Shown here in pieces: positions 16,035 to 46,010 of a stretch of 64,000 bases of DNA. The notes beneath the pieces were generated by a model. The model did not search any database. It worked only from the letters and a program-made list of their open reading frames with translations, and was not told the origin of the DNA. This DNA is from Streptomyces virus Karimac. Lineage: Duplodnaviria; Heunggongvirae; Uroviricota; Caudoviricetes. Position 1 is the stretch's first letter. Each line of letters begins with the position of its first letter. The position numbers were made by a program, and so were the translations under genes. The stretch lies in the IMG/VR virus record IMGVR_UViG_2974575442_000001; one strand, given 5' to 3'.

Positions 16035-16556
16035 ATGACGGTACTTCTTAGGACTATCCACGGAAGCCATCTGTATGGCCTCGCTCACGCAAACAGCGAT
16101 AAGGACATTTACGAAGTAATTGCAACCAATCGCACGAAGCGTAAGCGAAACATTAAGCAAACCATTGCGAATGGTGTTGACAAGACGACGGTAGATATGT
16201 CAACATTTATGAAGATGGTTGATGATTGCGTACCTCAAGCACTTGAAGCGCTATGGACGCCGGTCGCTGAGATCGATAAGATCCACGAATTCCGGACACA
16301 ATATCGAGTGAATCGCGCCAAGATGAAAGATGTGTACGTACGAACTGCCCTTAACTTCGCTAAGGGTGATGGGGTAAAGCAGAAGAAGCACGCAGTGCGA
16401 TTGCTGTTGAACCTTGGTCACACTTTGGAGTTTGGAAAGTTCAATCCTCGATTGGGTGCAATGGATAAGATCATTATCAATGCATCTGTCGGAGACGCGG
16501 GAAAGTATGATGCCGTGTTCGACGCTCTAATTGATGAGGTCGGCCGGTGGATATAA
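16035..16556 (+). CDS. minimal nucleotidyltransferase (Pol-beta superfamily)
   Basis: HGSHLYGLAHANSDKD matches the hG[GS]x9-13Dh[DE] NTase signature; sits inside the tRNA cluster. Confidence 0.45.
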   Translation: MTVLLRTIHGSHLYGLAHANSDKDIYEVIATNRTKRKRNIKQTIANGVDKTTVDMSTFMKMVDDCVPQALEALWTPVAEIDKIHEFRTQYRVNRAKMKDVYVRTALNFAKGDGVKQKKHAVRLLLNLGHTLEFGKFNPRLGAMDKIIINASVGDAGKYDAVFDALIDEVGRWI

Positions 16557-22837: not shown

Positions 22838-24466
22838 ATGTCCAACGCACTAACTAATGCCGCAAAGGCAACCAACAAGACTTCTCAGTCAATGAAGGCT
22901 AAGGCTGGACAGGTTAAGAACAACGCTGGTGGATTCGTCTTCCAGGTTTCTGATCAGTCTCGTCTTGAGCGCTTCCTGATTCTGGGAACTGATGGAGGAA
23001 CGTATTACGTCTCTGAGGTTAACCACACCCAGAGCAACGTAGAATTCCTCAATGAGTTCATTGCTCGTGACGAAGCCTCTGTACTGAACACAATCGTTGA
23101 TGTATCTGTCAATGGTCGTGCGTACAAGCAGAGTCCAGCCCTGTTCGCTCTAGCCTCTGTCATTGTCAACGGCAAGGATAAGCAGGCGGTCAAGGCTGTA
23201 TTCAACAAGGTCGTAAGGACTGCTACTCACCTCTACGAGGTGGTTAACTACCTTAACGAGCTTGGCGGATGGGGTCGCGCAAAGCGTGAAATCGTAGCTA
23301 GCTGGTTCGATAAGGATGCTGATAAGCTTGCTTATCAGGCAGTCAAGTATCGTTCCCGTAAGTTCGGTGGAAACACCTGGACGCTGCGAGACGTAATGCG
23401 AAAGGCTCACCCACAGAACGTTAACACGTCTGTTGCTGATTTTGTCCTAGGCAAGGAGCACGCGGCTGTAGATGACCTTCGGGTTATTGAGGGCTTCAAG
23501 CTTATGCAGAAGGCGGAGTCTGTAGAGAGTGTTCACGCAGTTCTGCGGGACTACGAGATGCTTTCTTGGGAGACAATTCCAACACAGTTCCTCACGGATG
23601 CTAGTGTTTGGAAGCGACTCTTCGCAAATGGTCAGCTTCGTGGTCAGGCTGCTGTTCGAAACATCACTCGCCTCGCGCGTATTGGTGCTTTCAAGGACAT
23701 GCAGTTTGCTGCGAGCTTCGCTGGTCAGCTAACGAATGAGGAACTGATTCGTCAGTCTCGACTGCACCCAATTAACTTCCTTAACGCTGCCGTTGTTTAC
23801 GCAGAAGGCCAGGTGGATCGAAAGAACTACTATGGCGGACGCGTAAAGAACTGGGAGACTGAGGCCGTTATTGTCGATGCAATCGATGAGGCGTTCCACA
23901 AGTCATTCAAGACCATTGAGCCAGCCGGTAAGAGGACGATGCTAGCCATCGACTGTTCCGGATCAATGAGTGCTATGGCTATGGGTCTCGACCTAAGCTG
24001 TGCACAGGTTGCTGGTGCTATGGCGATGACCATTGCGCGTACAGAGCCAGCTCACATTCTTCGCGGCTTCTCTAGCGTGGGGTACAACTGGCGTGACAGC
24101 GGTATGACCGAACTCAAGATTACTGGTCGCAGCTCTCTTGCTCAGGCAATGAGTGCAATGCGTGCGGTAAACTGGGGCGGTACAGACTGCTCACTGCCAA
24201 TGACGTGGGCTCTTGAGAACGGTGTGGAAGTTGACACCTTTGTCGTTATCACTGATAACGAGACATGGGCTGGCAAGATTCACCCATTCCAGGCTCTAAA
24301 GAAGTACCGTAAGGACACTGGCATTGATGCCCGACTTGCTGTTCTAGGAGTTGCTTCAACGCCATTTACTATCGCTGACCCAAGTGATAGCGGAATGATG
24401 GACTTCGTTGGCTTCGATAGCAACGCTCCACGTGTTCTGGCCGACTTCTCCGCAGGTCGAATCTGA
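22838..24466 (+). CDS. rsr: Ro60-like protein (TROVE domain plus C-terminal vWA/MIDAS); Rsr orthologue
   Basis: 542 aa; C-terminal MIDAS LAIDCSGSMS...GGTDCSLPM...VVITDNETW as in Ro60 vWA domain; N-terminal region of Ro60-like length and composition; Y-RNA-like genes nearby. Confidence 0.6.
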   Translation: MSNALTNAAKATNKTSQSMKAKAGQVKNNAGGFVFQVSDQSRLERFLILGTDGGTYYVSEVNHTQSNVEFLNEFIARDEASVLNTIVDVSVNGRAYKQSPALFALASVIVNGKDKQAVKAVFNKVVRTATHLYEVVNYLNELGGWGRAKREIVASWFDKDADKLAYQAVKYRSRKFGGNTWTLRDVMRKAHPQNVNTSVADFVLGKEHAAVDDLRVIEGFKLMQKAESVESVHAVLRDYEMLSWETIPTQFLTDASVWKRLFANGQLRGQAAVRNITRLARIGAFKDMQFAASFAGQLTNEELIRQSRLHPINFLNAAVVYAEGQVDRKNYYGGRVKNWETEAVIVDAIDEAFHKSFKTIEPAGKRTMLAIDCSGSMSAMAMGLDLSCAQVAGAMAMTIARTEPAHILRGFSSVGYNWRDSGMTELKITGRSSLAQAMSAMRAVNWGGTDCSLPMTWALENGVEVDTFVVITDNETWAGKIHPFQALKKYRKDTGIDARLAVLGVASTPFTIADPSDSGMMDFVGFDSNAPRVLADFSAGRI

Positions 24467-28354: not shown

Positions 28355-28408
28355 CTTTGAGAATACTCGCGATATTCTCAAATGCATATCAGGTCGCTCC
28401 TGATATGA

Positions 28409-28528
28409 GGAGTGTAGTTTAATTGGCAAAACCGCGAAATGCAATGTCGAAAGGGAAGTGCTGCTACGGCGGGTCTTACCTTAGTAGATATCAGAGTAGC
28501 AGTTGCGGGTTCGAGTCCCGTCACTCCG
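28409..28528 (+). ncRNA. unresolved ~120-nt tRNA-like RNA (acceptor-like stem ggagtg/cactcc plus T arm)
   Basis: T-arm gcgggttcgagtcccgt and terminal 6-bp stem enclose ~107 nt including 8-bp stem gctgctac/gtagcagt; too long for a tRNA and too short for tmRNA. Confidence 0.25.
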
Positions 28529-28668
28529 CTAGCCTGAGATGACGATCCGATGTAGGTCCCCTAGGGCTTGCGCAGGCCCGAAGGGCATTCGGGAAAGGTG
28601 CCTAGCTAGGTCCGTCTACCAATAAGGTGAGAGTTTTTCACGGCTTTTCTCATAATTAAACCGTGTTT

Positions 28669-28741: not shown

Positions 28742-28819
28742 AATGACTTATGGGAGTTGAGAGGCATCACATGCCCGACTGTAATCGGGTGATCGCAGGT
28801 TCGAATCCTGCCCCTATGG
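28742..28819 (+). tRNA. tRNA-like element without pairing acceptor stem
   Basis: Perfect T-arm gcaggttcgaatcctgc; extended hairpin atcac-atg-cccga-ctgtaa-tcggg-gtgat; 3' ccctatg has no 5' partner. Confidence 0.25.
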
Positions 28820-28826
28820 TCAGCAA

Positions 28827-29874: not shown

Positions 29875-30426
29875 ATGACTACACCAAAGAAGTACACACC
29901 AAAGCCCGGTGACATTGGGCTCACTCGTATTGGTGGTCTCACAGGAGTCCTAGTAGGTCTAGGTCAATTCATCATAAGAGACGCAAGCCGATACACCCAT
30001 GTGTTTGTTGTTTTGAACGACACAGAAGTCATCGAAGCTATGCCAGGCGGAGCGATCATCAGTCCGCTATCTAAGTATGAAGGAACTACCAAGTACGGCA
30101 GTCCGCTCGCTACCTACCTTGACATCAAGTTGACAGCAGAGCAGCGAGCACGTATCGTAGAGGAAGCTAGACAGCTCGAAGGAACACCCTACAGCTTCCT
30201 TGACTATGCTGCGCTAGCACTTGAACGATTTGGTTTTAAGTGGAAGTGGCTAGAGAACTATGTTGCTTCTACTAAGCACATGATCTGCTCCCAGCTAGCA
30301 GATGAAGTTTACAAGAGAGCTGGCGTCCATCTGTTCGAAGATGGTAGACTACCACAGAAGGTCACTCCGGGTGATCTTACCTACGTTGGAATGGACCAGC
30401 GATATGAAGAAGTGCCTGGGCTGTAA
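29875..30426 (+). CDS. papain-fold (NlpC/P60-like, permuted) peptidase/amidase
   Basis: Conserved Cys (HMICSQLADEVY) and His context; alternative GTG start at 29839. Confidence 0.4.
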   Translation: MTTPKKYTPKPGDIGLTRIGGLTGVLVGLGQFIIRDASRYTHVFVVLNDTEVIEAMPGGAIISPLSKYEGTTKYGSPLATYLDIKLTAEQRARIVEEARQLEGTPYSFLDYAALALERFGFKWKWLENYVASTKHMICSQLADEVYKRAGVHLFEDGRLPQKVTPGDLTYVGMDQRYEEVPGL

Positions 30427-36839: not shown

Positions 36840-36911
36840 GCATGTAAGCCAGGGATAAGCTAGGCGGGCCTGTAAAGCCCTACCTCGTTGGTTCGAATCC
36901 AACTACATGCA
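36840..36911 (+). tRNA. class-I tRNA with Tyr anticodon GTA (short variable arm)
   Basis: Perfect acceptor gcatgta/tacatgc, loop ctGTAaa on 4-bp stem, T-arm gttggttcgaatccaac. Confidence 0.45.
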
Positions 36912-38700: not shown

Positions 38701-39258
38701 TTGAAGATCTTTTATGACACCGAGTTCTATGAGACTGGACCGGATGAGCCTGTTAGGTTCATCAGTCTAGGAGCAGTGAGAGATGATGGTGAGCGACTGT
38801 ACTTGATCACCAACAACCTCTACGTGCTCAACAGAGCAAATGAGAATCCGTGGCTGAGGGAGAACGTCATCAGCCATTTGCCAGTTAAGCAGAACGACGA
38901 CGGAAGCCTCTCCTGGGATACTCAGCATCCCGACTACGCCAGGGTTCTGCCCAACGAGGCGATTGCTGGATTGTGGAGAGATTTCGTTCTGGACTACGAT
39001 CCGGCGTATGAGTTTGACAAGCCTGAGCTGTGGGCATACTATGGTGCCTATGACCACGTAGTTGTGAGCCAACTCTTTGGCCGCATGATTGACTTGCCAG
39101 ATGGCATGCCAATGTATACGATGGACATCAAGCAGCGTTGGCACAATGAAGGAAAACCTCCGCTACCAGAGCAAGAAGGTAGCGAGCACAACGCGCTTGC
39201 GGATGCTCTATGGAATCAGATAGCATATAACTATCTGGACGCTTACGGCGAAAGGTAA
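38701..39258 (+). CDS. DEDD-family (DnaQ-like) 3'-5' exonuclease
   Basis: Exo I motif FYDTEFYETG, Exo II YGAYDHVVV, Exo III HNALADAL; TTG start overlapping upstream stop. Confidence 0.55.
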   Translation: MKIFYDTEFYETGPDEPVRFISLGAVRDDGERLYLITNNLYVLNRANENPWLRENVISHLPVKQNDDGSLSWDTQHPDYARVLPNEAIAGLWRDFVLDYDPAYEFDKPELWAYYGAYDHVVVSQLFGRMIDLPDGMPMYTMDIKQRWHNEGKPPLPEQEGSEHNALADALWNQIAYNYLDAYGER

Positions 39259-39677
39259 GTAATGGGAGATCGCACCAACGTTGGTGTAGTTATGCGTGAT
39301 AGCACTGGCCGTGAAAAGCTGGGGATTCTGTGGGTTTACTCACACTGGGGTCTGCCTGGCATCACAGCATCTATCGCAAAGGCTCTTGACAACGCTAAGG
39401 GTCGATGGGATGATGATATGTATGGACAGCGAATTTTCGTTCAGTCCATCATGGAGGCCGGTGGTATGGAGGCTGACTCAGAGCTAGGTGGTGGACTAAG
39501 CTTTAACTTTATCGCTGACAATGAGCATAAGCTTTGGGTAGCAGACTTCTACGATCAGAGTATGTATCTGTTCCCTGAGTACAAGGGAGACCTTGACACA
39601 CCGGAGCCTCTTGTAGTAACATCATTTCAGAACTTCGTCACTAAGTATCTTAAGTGACGTAAGCCCTTCGGGGCCTA

Positions 39678-39954
39678 GGGGATGCCTTGGTTTCGACTGG
39701 GGTGGATGACTTTAGTTTGCAGCCAGACATTGAGGAGATGTCTTTAAAAAGCCTCAAACCTATAAATGCCAACTCTAACGTTGCGTCTGCCTACGCCCTA
39801 GCGGCGTGATGGCCGGGCGGCAACTGCCTAGGAACAGAAAGTTGCGAATGTTTGGCCCGGTGGGGATAAACACATGCACTACCTGCTTGACACATGGCTG
39901 TGTATAGACTACTGTTTGAAGCATCAGGACGCGGGTTCGACTCCCGCCATCTCC
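39678..39954 (+). ncRNA. ssrA: tmRNA (SsrA), tag peptide (A)ANSNVASAYALAA
   Basis: 5' GGGGATGCCTTGGTTTCGACTGGGGT and 3' GGACGCGGGTTCGACTCCCGCCATCTCCAC align with E. coli ssrA ends; acceptor with G3-U70; tag ORF GCC AAC TCT AAC GTT GCG TCT GCC TAC GCC CTA GCG GCG TGA at 39767-39808. Confidence 0.8.
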
Positions 39955-39968
39955 ACTTAAGGATCAAC

Positions 39969-40283
39969 ATGAGGTTGACAGCACGGTCTACTATGGTAGA
40001 CTTCGAACTGACAGAGCAAGATGCTCGAACGATCCAGAAGCGTATGAAGACTGGTCCTGTGACTCTCAAGGTTACTAGAGTTCAGATCAGCTATACCTAT
40101 GGAATCGTCGCAGTCGGTCTTGACAGGAATCCTGGACCTCACTACACTGTAAGTGTGTCAGGTTACAGAATGAAAGCTGGCATGAAGCAGAGAGAGTCTG
40201 TTTCTATTCACAGTTATCTTCGACCTGAGATGCCTGACTGGCTAGAGCAAATGGTTGTTGACAACGCTCCCAACTGGTACTAG
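39969..40283 (+). CDS. hypothetical protein
   Basis: ATG 39969 with RBS aagga just after the tmRNA; longer ORF-track start 39894 would overlap the tmRNA. Confidence 0.4.
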   Translation: MRLTARSTMVDFELTEQDARTIQKRMKTGPVTLKVTRVQISYTYGIVAVGLDRNPGPHYTVSVSGYRMKAGMKQRESVSIHSYLRPEMPDWLEQMVVDNAPNWY

Positions 40284-40568
40284 GATGTAAACATGCCGAA
40301 CTGGATGAGACTTCCCACAACGCGCAAGGACGTGTCCCTCGGATACCGAGTTGGTTCAGCTTTTGAGAACGGCTATGGTGACGAAGGGCCTCTTGCCAAG
40401 GGGATCGTAATTGGCGGATGTGTATTTCTGCCGCTTCTGATTGTAATTGCCGCTTTTGGCGGTGCAGCTTACGGACTCTGGGAGCTTGCCACATGGCTCT
40501 GGACTATGATAGCCTGATGAAGAAGTGGATGGACGCCATCCGCAAGATCGAGAAACGTAAGGACTGAC

Positions 40569-41464: not shown

Positions 41465-41534
41465 TGTCACATAGCTTAATGGGCAAAGCAGTCTTAGGCC
41501 AAAGACGATGTTGGTTCGAGTCCAACTGTGACAG
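41465..41534 (+). tRNA. tRNA with non-canonical (6- or 8-nt) anticodon loop
   Basis: Perfect acceptor tgtcaca/tgtgaca and T-arm gttggttcgagtccaac; anticodon hairpin gtctt-aggcca-aagac. Confidence 0.4.
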
Positions 41535-41559
41535 CAATATCAATTAGACTTCATAATCT

Positions 41560-43234: not shown

Positions 43235-44311
43235 ATGAAGTTCACCAAGATTTTCTCTCAGGAGCTTCTTGACGAGATGATCTCTGAGGGTTATGTCCGG
43301 GCGCAAACTCATCCGGTTCTGCCTCTCAAGATTCTCAACTACTCTGAGAAGACTCAGTTCGCCGGAAAGTGGAACGAGTGCACGCTTAACTGCCGTGGTA
43401 CGATCGTTGACTTTGACGGCAACCTGATTGCTCGTCCTTTCATGAAGTTCTTCAACCTTGGCGACTCTCAGTCTGCACAGCTTGACTGGGATGCACCTGT
43501 TGAGGTTACTGACAAGAAGGACGGCTCTATGGGAGTTCTTTACTCTTATGGAGGTGAGTGGGCTATTGCTACGCGAGGCTCATTCATGTCAGATCAGGCA
43601 ATTCACGCTACTCGTGTTCTGAACGAGCGCTACAGCCACATTCAGTTTGTCTCAGACTGCACATTCATCTTTGAGATCGTTTACCCTGACAACAGGATCG
43701 TTCTGGACTACGGTTCAATGGATGACCTGATTATGCTAGGGGCGGTTCACAAGGAGCATGGGTACGTCTGTGGTCCGCTGGAGGCGCAGGCAATTGTAAA
43801 TTGGGACGGGCCGGTGACGGAGGTCTTCAATTACAGGTCTTTGCGTGAGGCTGCTGTAGCAGATTACCGTAAGAACGCAGAGGGATTTGTCGTGCGTTCT
43901 GGTGCAAAGATGGTCAAGATCAAGCAGGCGGATTACGTTGAGCTGCACCGCATGATCTCAATGCTTTCTGAGCGCTCTGTGTGGTCTCAGCTTTCTCAGG
44001 GGTACTCTATCCTTGAGATCTGTGAGGCTCTGCCAGATGAGTTCCACCAGTTCGTCAAGGACGTGGGCGGGAAGCTTCTGGAGCAGTACCAGGAAATTGA
44101 GATTAAGGTTCGTGGCATCTTCCACAACCTTCTTTCTTCAATGGACGAGGGCTTCACACGTCGAGACTTCGCGATGGCTGCAAATCGGATTGATGGCTAC
44201 CGATCTCACATGTTTAACCTGCTTGACGGGAAGAGCATCGATGAGCTAATCTGGAAGCAGATCAAGCCGGAGGCCAAGCGAGAGGACGTACACCCTACCA
44301 ATGCGGGCTAA
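43235..44311 (+). CDS. ATP-dependent RNA ligase (Rnl-family)
   Basis: Nucleotidyltransferase motif I TDKKDGSMG (KxDG); size and downstream motifs as in phage RNA ligases; RBS aggagg. Confidence 0.65.
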   Translation: MKFTKIFSQELLDEMISEGYVRAQTHPVLPLKILNYSEKTQFAGKWNECTLNCRGTIVDFDGNLIARPFMKFFNLGDSQSAQLDWDAPVEVTDKKDGSMGVLYSYGGEWAIATRGSFMSDQAIHATRVLNERYSHIQFVSDCTFIFEIVYPDNRIVLDYGSMDDLIMLGAVHKEHGYVCGPLEAQAIVNWDGPVTEVFNYRSLREAAVADYRKNAEGFVVRSGAKMVKIKQADYVELHRMISMLSERSVWSQLSQGYSILEICEALPDEFHQFVKDVGGKLLEQYQEIEIKVRGIFHNLLSSMDEGFTRRDFAMAANRIDGYRSHMFNLLDGKSIDELIWKQIKPEAKREDVHPTNAG

Positions 44312-45119: not shown

Positions 45120-46010
45120 ATGCAGCTTCTCATTCTCCGGGGAATTCCCGGTTGTGGTAAGAGCACCTGGGCACATGAGGTATGGCTCAAGGAAAACCCG
45201 AATGGTGTTCGCGTCAATCGTGACGACATTCGTATGCAGCTCTTTGGCCGGGAGACCGGAGTAGACGAGGAGCTTGTTACTCGAATTGAGCACGGAATGG
45301 TCGATGGCGCTCTGTCAAAGGGCTACTCCGTGGTTGTCGATGACACGAACATCCGACACAAGTACATCAAGGAATTCGTCAAGATCGGTCAGCGTCACGG
45401 CGCTAGTGTTTCAGTTAAGCAGTTTGACGTTTCTCTGGAGACGGCAATTCAGCGAAACACTGTGCGTGCTGCGCTCGGTGGTCGAGACGTTCCTGAGTCT
45501 GTCATTCGTAAGATGCATCAGTCCATGAAGTCTAGTGGAGTTTTCACTGACTTCCACACAAGCGTTACGGCCGTTCGTCCTTATGAGCGTCCCGAAGGTG
45601 CAGAGAAGGTTTACCTCTTTGACATCGACGGAACCCTTGCTGAGATGAACGAGCGTGATCCTTTCTACTGGAAGGGTGTTGGCGACGATGATCCGCGACG
45701 ACAGGTGATTCTTACTGCTCAGGCTCACGCGAAGGCGGGATACAAGATCATCGTTATGAGCGGACGAGACGGCTCATGTCGCAATGAAACAATCGCTTGG
45801 CTGGATCTGTACGACATTCCTTTCTCAGAATTGCACATGCGTGCTGAGGGAGACATGCGCAAGGACTCTATTGTCAAGCAAGAGCTGTTCGATGAGCACA
45901 TTCGTGACATCTACGATGTTGTGGCTGTGTACGATGATCGTCAGCAGGTTGTTGACATGTGGCGTGCGATGGGCATAGACTGTTTCCAGGTAGCACCCGG
46001 AAACTTCTGA
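45120..46010 (+). CDS. polynucleotide kinase-phosphatase (T4 Pnkp-like)
   Basis: N-terminal P-loop GIPGCGKST kinase and C-terminal HAD phosphatase motif LFDIDGTLA. Confidence 0.7.
   Translation: MQLLILRGIPGCGKSTWAHEVWLKENPNGVRVNRDDIRMQLFGRETGVDEELVTRIEHGMVDGALSKGYSVVVDDTNIRHKYIKEFVKIGQRHGASVSVKQFDVSLETAIQRNTVRAALGGRDVPESVIRKMHQSMKSSGVFTDFHTSVTAVRPYERPEGAEKVYLFDIDGTLAEMNERDPFYWKGVGDDDPRRQVILTAQAHAKAGYKIIVMSGRDGSCRNETIAWLDLYDIPFSELHMRAEGDMRKDSIVKQELFDEHIRDIYDVVAVYDDRQQVVDMWRAMGIDCFQVAPGNF

Follow-up and report, generated by a model that had tools for sequence, protein, structure and literature searches.

What kind of transfer-messenger RNA (tmRNA, encoded by ssrA) does a virulent Streptomyces phage carry, how much of the usual architecture does it keep, and what could the phage gain from it? 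These questions are raised by positions 39678-39956 (+ strand) of a 64,000-nucleotide stretch of DNA from Streptomyces virus Karimac (IMG/VR record IMGVR_UViG_2974575442_000001), referred to here as the window. A first-pass annotation, made from the letters of the window, claimed a complete tmRNA gene at this site, and both of the checks it proposed, ARAGORN and the Rfam tmRNA model, bear the claim out. Over the 10 kb surrounding the site, the window matches the virulent siphovirus Streptomyces phage Karimac (MH590599 / NC_048724, 131,909 bp) with 100% identity, and coordinates in NC_048724 equal window coordinates plus 58,074. The Karimac record lists “tmRNA, gene 192” at 97752-98030, which is exactly the feature at 39678-39956 of the window. 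The finding is thus correct but not new, since the gene is annotated in the public record and the content of the cluster has been published. Phages of cluster BE1 carry 43-48 tRNAs and one tmRNA per genome (Hughes et al. 2018, PMC5764925), and later genome announcements restate this tRNA and tmRNA content.

A query of 401 nt spanning the site retrieves 97 phage records, all from Streptomyces phages. The tmRNA is annotated in most of them, and many carry the note “Tag peptide: ANSNVASAYALAA*”; the tmRNA alone as query retrieves 104 Streptomyces phage records. Gene 192 is the same gene as the tmRNAs of the Stanwilliamsviridae (actinobacteriophage clusters BE and BK), whose homologues have the tags ANSNVASAYALAA, ANSNVAFALAA, ANSKFAFALAA, DNSNVAFALAA, AESNSAFALAA and ANSKNASAYALAA. 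Public records for this family give coordinates and tag only, and no paper testing the role of a Stanwilliamsviridae phage tmRNA was found in the literature searched. What is worked out here beyond the records is the reduced number of pseudoknots, the covariation that supports the structure, the mosaic origin of the tag module and the absence of SmpB.

A complete one-piece tmRNA gene

A single tmRNA is called by ARAGORN in the window: it lies on the + strand at 39678-39956, is of standard form and has the tag ANSNVASAYALAA. Rfam family RF00023 matches 39678-39958 over the full model (1-374) with 94.6 bits against a gathering score of 47 (E = 1.4e-35); this is the only tmRNA match in the 64 kb and is far beyond chance. 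A two-piece, circularly permuted form is not indicated at the site, where ARAGORN gives the standard order and only RF00023, not RF04321, is reported. Together with the RefSeq annotation, these results identify the Karimac RNA as a genuine, complete, one-piece ssrA-type tmRNA gene with a canonical degradation tag. The end sequences quoted in the first-pass annotation are both present in the window and its start at 39678 holds; its end at 39954 falls short of 39955/39956, which are the discriminator A plus one C. In the mature RNA, A39955 is probably the last encoded base, with CCA added after transcription. The neighbouring gene was also placed correctly at ATG 39969, which is where the RefSeq gene at 98043-98357 begins (window 39969-40283); the six-frame open reading frame (ORF) that starts at 39894 and overlaps the tmRNA is an artefact and not the annotated gene.

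The two ends of the RNA form a tRNA-like domain. The 5' strand of the acceptor stem, GGGGAUG (39678-39684), pairs with CAUCUCC (39948-39954), which is followed by discriminator A39955 and C39956 (the 3' feature being 39948-39956). Within this stem G39680 pairs with U39952, so that the G3-U70 pair claimed from the sequence is present. G3.U70 is the identity pair for alanine. Among 18 aligned relatives the acceptor stem is 100% paired, 3 of its 7 pairs have changed on both sides (positions 4-6 covary) and the G.U at position 3 is found in 18 of 18. The T arm at 39931-39947 comprises GCGGG, the loop UUCGACU and CCCGC; it is 100% paired, with both-side changes in 2 of 5 pairs. The D-loop analogue GGUUUCGA (39689-39696) is invariant in 12 of 12 and in 18 of 18 aligned phage tmRNAs. 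The RNA therefore has a T arm with a GUUCGAnUC-type loop and a D-loop analogue, and helix 2 leaves in the place of the anticodon arm. Only AC follows the acceptor stem (ACTT in the DNA; ...CUCC-A-C-UU in the RNA), so CCA is not encoded, and all relatives end in ...CCAC with variable bases after it.

The messenger part of the RNA lies at 39768-39809. The motif AUAAAU (39762-39767), which is the frame-setting region and is invariant in the aligned relatives, stands directly 5' of the resume codon. The tag frame comprises GCC (39768-39770), the peptide ANSNVASAYALAA and the stop codon UGA (39807-39809), and corresponds to the coding part 91-132 given by ARAGORN. The first-pass annotation named the resume codon rightly as GCC and placed it one position too early, at 39767; the tag ending in ...YALAA before TGA, which it also claimed, is obtained from both ARAGORN and the translation. 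Judged from the tag sequence, peptides tagged by the phage would end in AANSNVASAYALAA. An internal reading frame with an ...ALAA-type end is kept in the relatives.

Covariation and the reduced pseudoknot architecture

The structure of the RNA was compared across relatives from the Boydwoodruffvirinae (Warpy, Daubenski, Peebs, NootNoot, Tomas, Mildred21, Bmoc, Wofford, Yaboi, StarPlatinum and others) and the Loccivirinae (Faust, Blueeyedbeauty, Annadreamy, Comrade and BillNye), together with three metagenomic viral contigs. Of the 12 isolate loci in the first collection, 11 are recognized as tmRNAs by ARAGORN as well as by RF00023 (76.8-106.8 bits, 267-300 nt), the twelfth being TunaTartare; tmRNAs from the scan of viral contigs were called by ARAGORN only. 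Alignment of 12 full-length relatives by MAFFT with RNAalifold misaligned the 5' end and the variable centre, yielded only 36 nested pairs and was replaced. The final alignment was hand-anchored and padded with N, has 192 columns that MAFFT leaves unchanged, and has the block of the tag and helix 5 and the variable block after pseudoknot 2 (PK2) cut out. The second stems of pseudoknot 1 (PK1) and PK2 were positioned at the best complement found within short windows, which inflates the percentage paired but not the number of pair types.

In this alignment of 18 distinct sequences and 46 pairs (828 cells), 97.5% of cells hold standard pairs, against 77.7% in shuffles and 40-50% when the partners are slid by 1-3 columns. 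Changes on both sides are found in 26 of the 46 pairs, and the covariation score is 0.511 against 0.133 in shuffles. None of 500 shuffles attains any of the observed measures of pairing or covariation, although this count is not a probability because the sequences share kinship. The number of distinct pair types cannot come from the fitting of stems. Compensatory change is thus extensive, and selection maintains the tmRNA structure across the relatives. The G3.U70 pair, GGUUUCGA, AUAAAU before the resume codon and the ...ALAA end are conserved as well, with one exception found, the tag of the BillNye lineage.

Helix 2 leaves the tRNA-like domain. One part of it, helix 2a, pairs CUGGGGUG (39697-39704) with AGCAUCAG (39920-39927), with both-side changes in 6 of 8 pairs and 85% of cells paired. 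Helix 2d pairs GCAGCC (39719-39724) with GGCUGU (39896-39901) and is 100% paired, with one double change. By RNAalifold and the covariation count, the 3' strand as a whole extends over 39896-39927 and comprises GGCUGU, an internal part and AGCAUCAG. In the Peebs type the helix 2 5' strand can also be drawn in a GGGGUG/CACCCC pairing; this was dropped, being conserved neither in Bmoc nor in Karimac. PK1 (39725-39757) follows directly, with stem 1 formed by AGACA (39725-39729) and UGUCU (39739-39743) and stem 2 by UUGAG (39730-39734) and CUCAA (39753-39757). Both stems are 100% paired in the 18 sequences, 4 of 5 pairs in stem 1 and 3 of 5 in stem 2 have changed on both sides, and stem 1 occurs in six sequence versions among the relatives.

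Past the tag lies PK2, an H-type pseudoknot at 39815-39845. Its stem 1 pairs GGGC (39815-39818) with GCCU (39826-39829), its stem 2 pairs GCAACU (39820-39825) with AGUUGC (39840-39845), and the conserved AGGAACAGAA (39830-39839) forms loop 3. Pairing is 100% in both stems. All 6 pairs of stem 2 have changed on both sides, as has 1 of the 4 pairs in stem 1, where a pyrimidine-purine pair covaries (C-G in 11 sequences, U-A in 7). The pseudoknots expected between 39700 and 39920 are therefore present in part: PK1 and one post-tag pseudoknot are supported by covariation, while the usual pseudoknots 3 and 4 (PK3 and PK4) are absent. In the Rfam alignment the Karimac RNA supplies only 2 bases to one stretch of 32 positions of the RF00023 model and only 9 to another of 55, and these stretches contain the PK3 and PK4 helices. 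A set of PK2, PK3 and PK4 is typical of the tmRNA family but not universal in it, and only PK2 is supported here. Accepted tmRNAs with fewer pseudoknots exist, so the missing PK3 and PK4 do not exclude the Karimac RNA from the family. The shortening is visible in length: the phage RNAs measure 267-300 nt (Karimac about 280), against 363-403 nt (median 369) in 115 actinobacterial tmRNAs, a difference of about 70-100 nt. In Peebs-type RNAs, PK2 and the helix 2 3' strand are only about 27 nt apart, which leaves two pseudoknots and little else. Mutagenesis of E. coli tmRNA has shown that PK2-PK4 can be replaced without abolishing tagging, and the reduced phage RNA is therefore compatible with function.

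The place of PK3 and PK4 is taken in the Karimac, Warpy and Daubenski types by a lineage-specific element of 44 nt (39846-39889), which is absent in the Peebs type. Three candidate pairings can be drawn for it. The first, which is the minimum free energy (MFE) solution, is a hairpin of UGUUUG (39849-39854) with UAAACA (39867-39872) and of CCC (39856-39858) with GGG (39863-39865). Single-sequence folding cannot predict pseudoknots, and it was used only for this hairpin candidate at 39849-39872. The second is a small H-type pseudoknot that adds GUGGG (39860-39864) paired with CCUGC (39882-39886); this pairing is retained by each of the natural variants CCUGC, UCUGC and UCCGC, as it is by GCAGG on the opposite strand. 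The third is a competing pairing of GCCGGG (39812-39817) with CCCGGU (39856-39861).

The end of the tag is enclosed by helix 5 (39789-39813), in which GCC (39789-39791) pairs with GGC (39811-39813) and ACGCC (39793-39797) with GGCGU (39803-39807), with compensatory changes found by RNAalifold. Two designs of helix 5 occur in the family, with the stop codon either in the loop (11-residue tags) or in the 3' strand (13-residue tags). This part of the molecule has a different affinity from the rest. RNA positions 106-141 (39783-39818), which hold the 3' half of the tag and helix 5, are 94% identical to Blueeyedbeauty of the Loccivirinae and only 60-66% identical to Warpy, Peebs and Tomas, the nearest relatives by backbone. 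In contrast, the 5' 105 nt and the 3' 65 nt of the Karimac RNA are 88-100% identical to Warpy and Peebs, and the identity of Blueeyedbeauty to all other Karimac segments is only 39-78%. Judged from these identities, the module of tag and helix 5 looks like one exchanged between phage lineages, acquired here from the sister subfamily.

Comparison with host and other phage tmRNAs

Host genes for comparison were gathered by a pattern search of genomes, which gave 120 actinobacterial loci and 115 tmRNAs; S. griseus is not among the loci. The search pattern required FALAA and included the motif GGUUUCGAC, and so the set gives no measure of how widespread the FALAA ending is in Streptomyces. GGGGAUGAUCGGUUUCGAC stands at the start and GGACGCGGGUUCGAUUCCCGCCAUCUCCAC at the end of the 19 Streptomyces tmRNAs examined. 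Both the host and the phage RNAs are of the one-piece type, their acceptor stems (GGGGAUG/CAUCUCC with G3.U70) are identical, and 29 of 30 nt agree over the stretch that begins at GGAC, spans the T arm and acceptor 3' strand and ends with ...CAC. The motif GGUUUCGAC is also shared, which is not independent evidence, being part of the retrieval pattern. The same applies to the D-loop-analogue motif, which occurs in the 19 Streptomyces tmRNAs but was likewise part of the pattern, so that its presence there says nothing about conservation in hosts.

The first codons of the tag are similar in host and phage, and so is the context before the resume at GCC AAC, a stretch containing AUAA in both (AUAAAU in Karimac and AAUAAUC in 19 of 19 Streptomyces tmRNAs). 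The two RNAs differ in size and architecture: the Streptomyces RNAs retrieved measure 367-400 nt and have tags of 12-16 residues, and PK3 and PK4 are absent from the Karimac RNA. The comparison of tags proposed at the outset shows a resemblance: tags start with AN[ST] and end with ALAA in both, the Streptomyces tags retrieved having the form AN[TS]K[RS]DS...FALAA and the Karimac tag the form ANS...YALAA. A blastn comparison of the phage gene with the 115 actinobacterial tmRNAs finds similarity only in the last ~30 nt, which span the T arm and the acceptor 3' strand. Recent capture from a host is thus not shown, and the Karimac tmRNA appears to be an old or heavily reshaped lineage.

Variants of this RNA occur among the relatives. 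BillNye (NC_042105 75347-75644), and also Circinus, Ankus, Byblos and DekoNeimoidia, have a reduced tmRNA with the tag ADNIDAEYEALCAEYALVTV; the tags of BillNye and Circinus have 20 residues and end in ...YALVTV. This lineage lacks the ...ALAA degron, and rescue there may therefore not lead to degradation. In TunaTartare (NC_070784 80158-80936) the tmRNA gene is broken right after PK2 by an insert of about 500 nt with an “endonuclease VII” ORF. RF00023 still reaches 50.5 bits over the interrupted gene, the insert matches no intron family, and the tmRNA is not annotated in the record; the insert could be an intervening sequence, could mark a split tmRNA, or could have disrupted the gene. A viral contig of 229,675 bp (IMGVR_UViG_3300013093_000017) encodes a circularly permuted tmRNA of the two-piece type with the tag ASNDSIFALAA, which shares the motifs GGTTTCGAC, ATAAATGC and GGGAACAGAA with the Karimac family; no tRNA genes were found near it in the 11.6 kb fetched.

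Phage tmRNAs are known from 402 of 18,146 phage genomes, or about 2%, and have been proposed to maintain the hijacked translation machinery or to serve protein recycling (PMC9004378). Other examples, whether one-piece, of the two-piece Melnitz type or from mycobacteriophage DS6A, are like that of Karimac phage-borne ribosome-rescue RNAs, usually found beside tRNA genes. The Melnitz-type tmRNAs of marine phages are circularly permuted and controlled by a riboswitch (PMC9004378), whereas the Karimac tmRNA is of the standard one-piece form. The DS6A RNA has no tag frame (PMC11915505), in contrast to the canonical degron tag and two well-supported pseudoknots of Karimac.

Genomic setting and function

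The tmRNA gene lies in a + strand run of small ORFs within an island of 44 tRNA genes (ARAGORN, counted in the window). A profile search for SmpB across the 131,909-bp phage genome (1,684 six-frame segments) gave a best E of 1.3. The profile was built from 85 actinobacterial SmpBs and E. coli SmpB (identical to PDB 6q98 chain 5), and its positive control was 85 hits in the host loci. Of the 120 actinobacterial loci, 85 have an smpB gene in the 8 kb surrounding ssrA, and none was found in the phage; the phage tmRNA must therefore use host SmpB. As read from the genome, it would have to depend on the host for alanyl-tRNA synthetase (AlaRS), EF-Tu, RNase P and the CCA-adding enzyme as well. Two phage genes were considered as possible sources of related activities and were rejected. 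The annotated “nucleotidyltransferase” (16035-16556) was considered as a CCA-adding enzyme but matches only the RlaP RNA-repair family (24.3 bits). The “peptidase / enoyl-CoA hydratase-like” gene (29875-30426) was considered as a ClpP-like protease but matches only Peptidase_C92, below the cut-off, and so has no link to tag-directed proteolysis.

Several neighbouring features could bear on expression and maturation. Upstream, at 38701-39258, is an Rv2179c-like 3'-5' exoribonuclease gene (Pfam 27.5 bits against a cut-off of 27; annotated as DnaQ-like or RNase H), which is a candidate for the enzyme that trims the 3' ends of CCA-less tRNAs and the tmRNA. It lies 10 nt upstream of the tmRNA in Peebs, NootNoot, Daubenski and Bmoc, with at least one small ORF between the two in Karimac and some others. 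A GCCC-UUCG-GGGC hairpin (39663-39674, + strand) starts 6 nt past the upstream stop codon and leaves a gap of 3 nt to the tmRNA 5' end. In every BE-type relative inspected this place is occupied by a hairpin, either of this sequence or of the unrelated sequence GGUGA-CUCA-UCACC, and the hairpin may be a processing or insulating element. A promoter-like site, TTGACA-N18-TAACAT (39593-39622, + strand), lies within the upstream ORF, 56 nt ahead of the tmRNA; it is a consensus match that is conserved in Karimac-type relatives, but within coding sequence. In the 2.2 kb around the tmRNA 10 promoter-like sites are found against 2.2 expected, an enrichment of about five-fold, and TTGACA occurs in the window 76 times on the + strand and 31 times on the - strand, with about 16 expected. 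These counts suggest that many sigma-70-type promoters may stand before the small genes and RNA genes. Further promoter-like sites on the + strand are seen at 39975-40002, 40120-40148 and 40258-40286. The conserved TTGACA at 39887-39892 was rejected as an internal promoter, having no acceptable -10 at the right spacing.

The same part of the genome holds other genes and loci related to RNA. Genes for RNA maintenance comprise a Ro60 homologue (TROVE and vWA domains, E = 2e-59), the weakly RlaP-like nucleotidyltransferase, a T4-type RNA ligase and a polynucleotide kinase/phosphatase (PNKP), at window positions 22838-24466, 16035-16556, 43235-44311 and 45120-46010, respectively. No Y-RNA family was found at the Rfam threshold in the window. 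Two tRNA-like genes reported by ARAGORN have a two-base “anticodon” (tRNA-???; 28748-28821 and 41465-41535), one of which the record labels tRNA-OTHER, and two weak tRNA matches are seen by Rfam only (28408-28529 and 36840-36911, one of them 122 nt long). These four odd loci are unusual or degenerate tRNAs.

The first-pass annotation had suggested that a phage tmRNA could keep host ribosomes recycling during infection, and this remains the best-supported function, though one reached by inference. Very probably the Karimac RNA performs ordinary trans-translation with host cofactors and supports a phage of about 50% GC in a host of higher GC. Its transcript would either be shared with the neighbouring small genes and tRNAs or arise at the promoter-like site (39593-39622). 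Maturation would then take cleavage at the 5' end by host RNase P, trimming by a 3' exonuclease, and addition of CCA, which is not encoded, by the host enzyme. Charging with alanine by host AlaRS is expected from the host-identical acceptor stem, G3.U70, the discriminator A and the canonical T arm. Host SmpB and EF-Tu would then deliver the charged RNA to ribosomes stalled on broken or stop-less mRNAs, where GCC 39768 would serve as the point of resumption and A-ANSNVASAYALAA would be added. The ribosome would be released on terminating at UGA 39807, and the truncated protein, now with an ...ALAA end, would pass to host Clp-type proteases. The benefit would be extra rescue capacity for a phage whose host lies about 20 GC points higher, and possibly under RNA-cleaving defences. 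The full tRNA set, the RNA ligase, the polynucleotide kinase/phosphatase and the Ro60-like protein fit the same theme.

Several points weigh against this account. The MFE of the single sequence is no more stable than that of shuffles (z = -1.0), which is expected for a pseudoknotted RNA. Helix 2a of Karimac has a G.A mismatch at its fifth pair, the evidence does not choose among the three candidate folds of 39846-39889, and loss of PK3 and PK4 could lower stability or maturation. The benefit to the phage is inferred, and the hosts already have a tmRNA of their own. In the literature searched, data on expression, aminoacylation or tagging were not found for Karimac or related phage tmRNAs.

The apparent exchange of the tag module between phage lineages, its replacement by a non-degron tag in BillNye and the interruption of the gene in TunaTartare would also accord with a more specialized account, in which a minimal rescue RNA of PK1 and PK2 is adapted to the phage and competes for host SmpB, while a swappable tag module lets phages tune the fate of rescued proteins; this is possible but unlikely. 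It is considerably less probable that the Karimac tag gives tagged proteins another fate, such as escape from degradation, or targets particular host proteins. Such retargeting of tagging, also raised in the first-pass annotation, would be in keeping with a tag that ends in YALAA instead of the FALAA of the Streptomyces tags retrieved and differs in the middle, with the ...YALVTV tags of BillNye and Circinus, and with the apparent swapping of the tag module between phage subfamilies. The contrast of F and Y is, however, biased by a host pattern that required FALAA. ALAA is the key degron for recognition by ClpX, and a YALAA ending is used by E. coli and mycobacteria. The Karimac tag retains this C-terminal ALAA and a host-like ANS... 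start, which leaves retargeting unsupported for Karimac; moreover, tmRNA acts on any stalled ribosome, so the sequence of the tag cannot choose substrates.

Even less credence is given to a decoy, in which the phage RNA would bind host SmpB, AlaRS or stalled ribosomes and displace or inhibit the host tmRNA, for example blunting a host response that depends on trans-translation. The tRNA-like domain of Karimac is a near-exact copy of that of the host, competition for host SmpB is necessary when the phage has none, and the tag-less mini-tmRNA of DS6A inhibits endogenous tmRNA in E. coli (report cited in PMC11915505). A pure decoy would not need conserved tag features, yet the tag frame, resume context, helix 5 and ...ALAA are conserved across about 100 phages with synonymous or conservative variation, which weighs against it. 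The least probable explanation is a non-functional relic, either a decaying captured host ssrA or an att-site fragment as in temperate phages: the RNA falls about 90 nt short of host tmRNAs and is missing two pseudoknots, and in many unrelated temperate phages the match is confined to the last ~30 nt of the gene, as is typical of att sites, but the gene is complete at both ends, its extensive compensatory change marks purifying selection on structure, the missing DNA similarity to host ssrA outside the T arm speaks against recent capture, and no integrase is listed in the annotated Karimac genome, with related phages of the family described as virulent or lytic. The attP-fragment version was rejected on the completeness of the gene and the lack of an annotated integrase.

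Ordinary trans-translation with host cofactors thus remains the preferred function. As a discovery the gene carries little weight, being annotated in its own genome, and phage tmRNAs are known, though rare. A study of host ssrA and smpB mutants exists, in which S. coelicolor ssrA was also engineered to an ...ALDD variant (PMC2635970). The modest value of the Karimac RNA lies in being a tmRNA reduced by nature to about 280 nt, which has two pseudoknots supported by covariation, comes without a phage SmpB and belongs to a genetically tractable phage-host system. It could be used as a case for investigating what a phage gains from its own ribosome-rescue RNA and how much of the pseudoknot ring a tmRNA needs.

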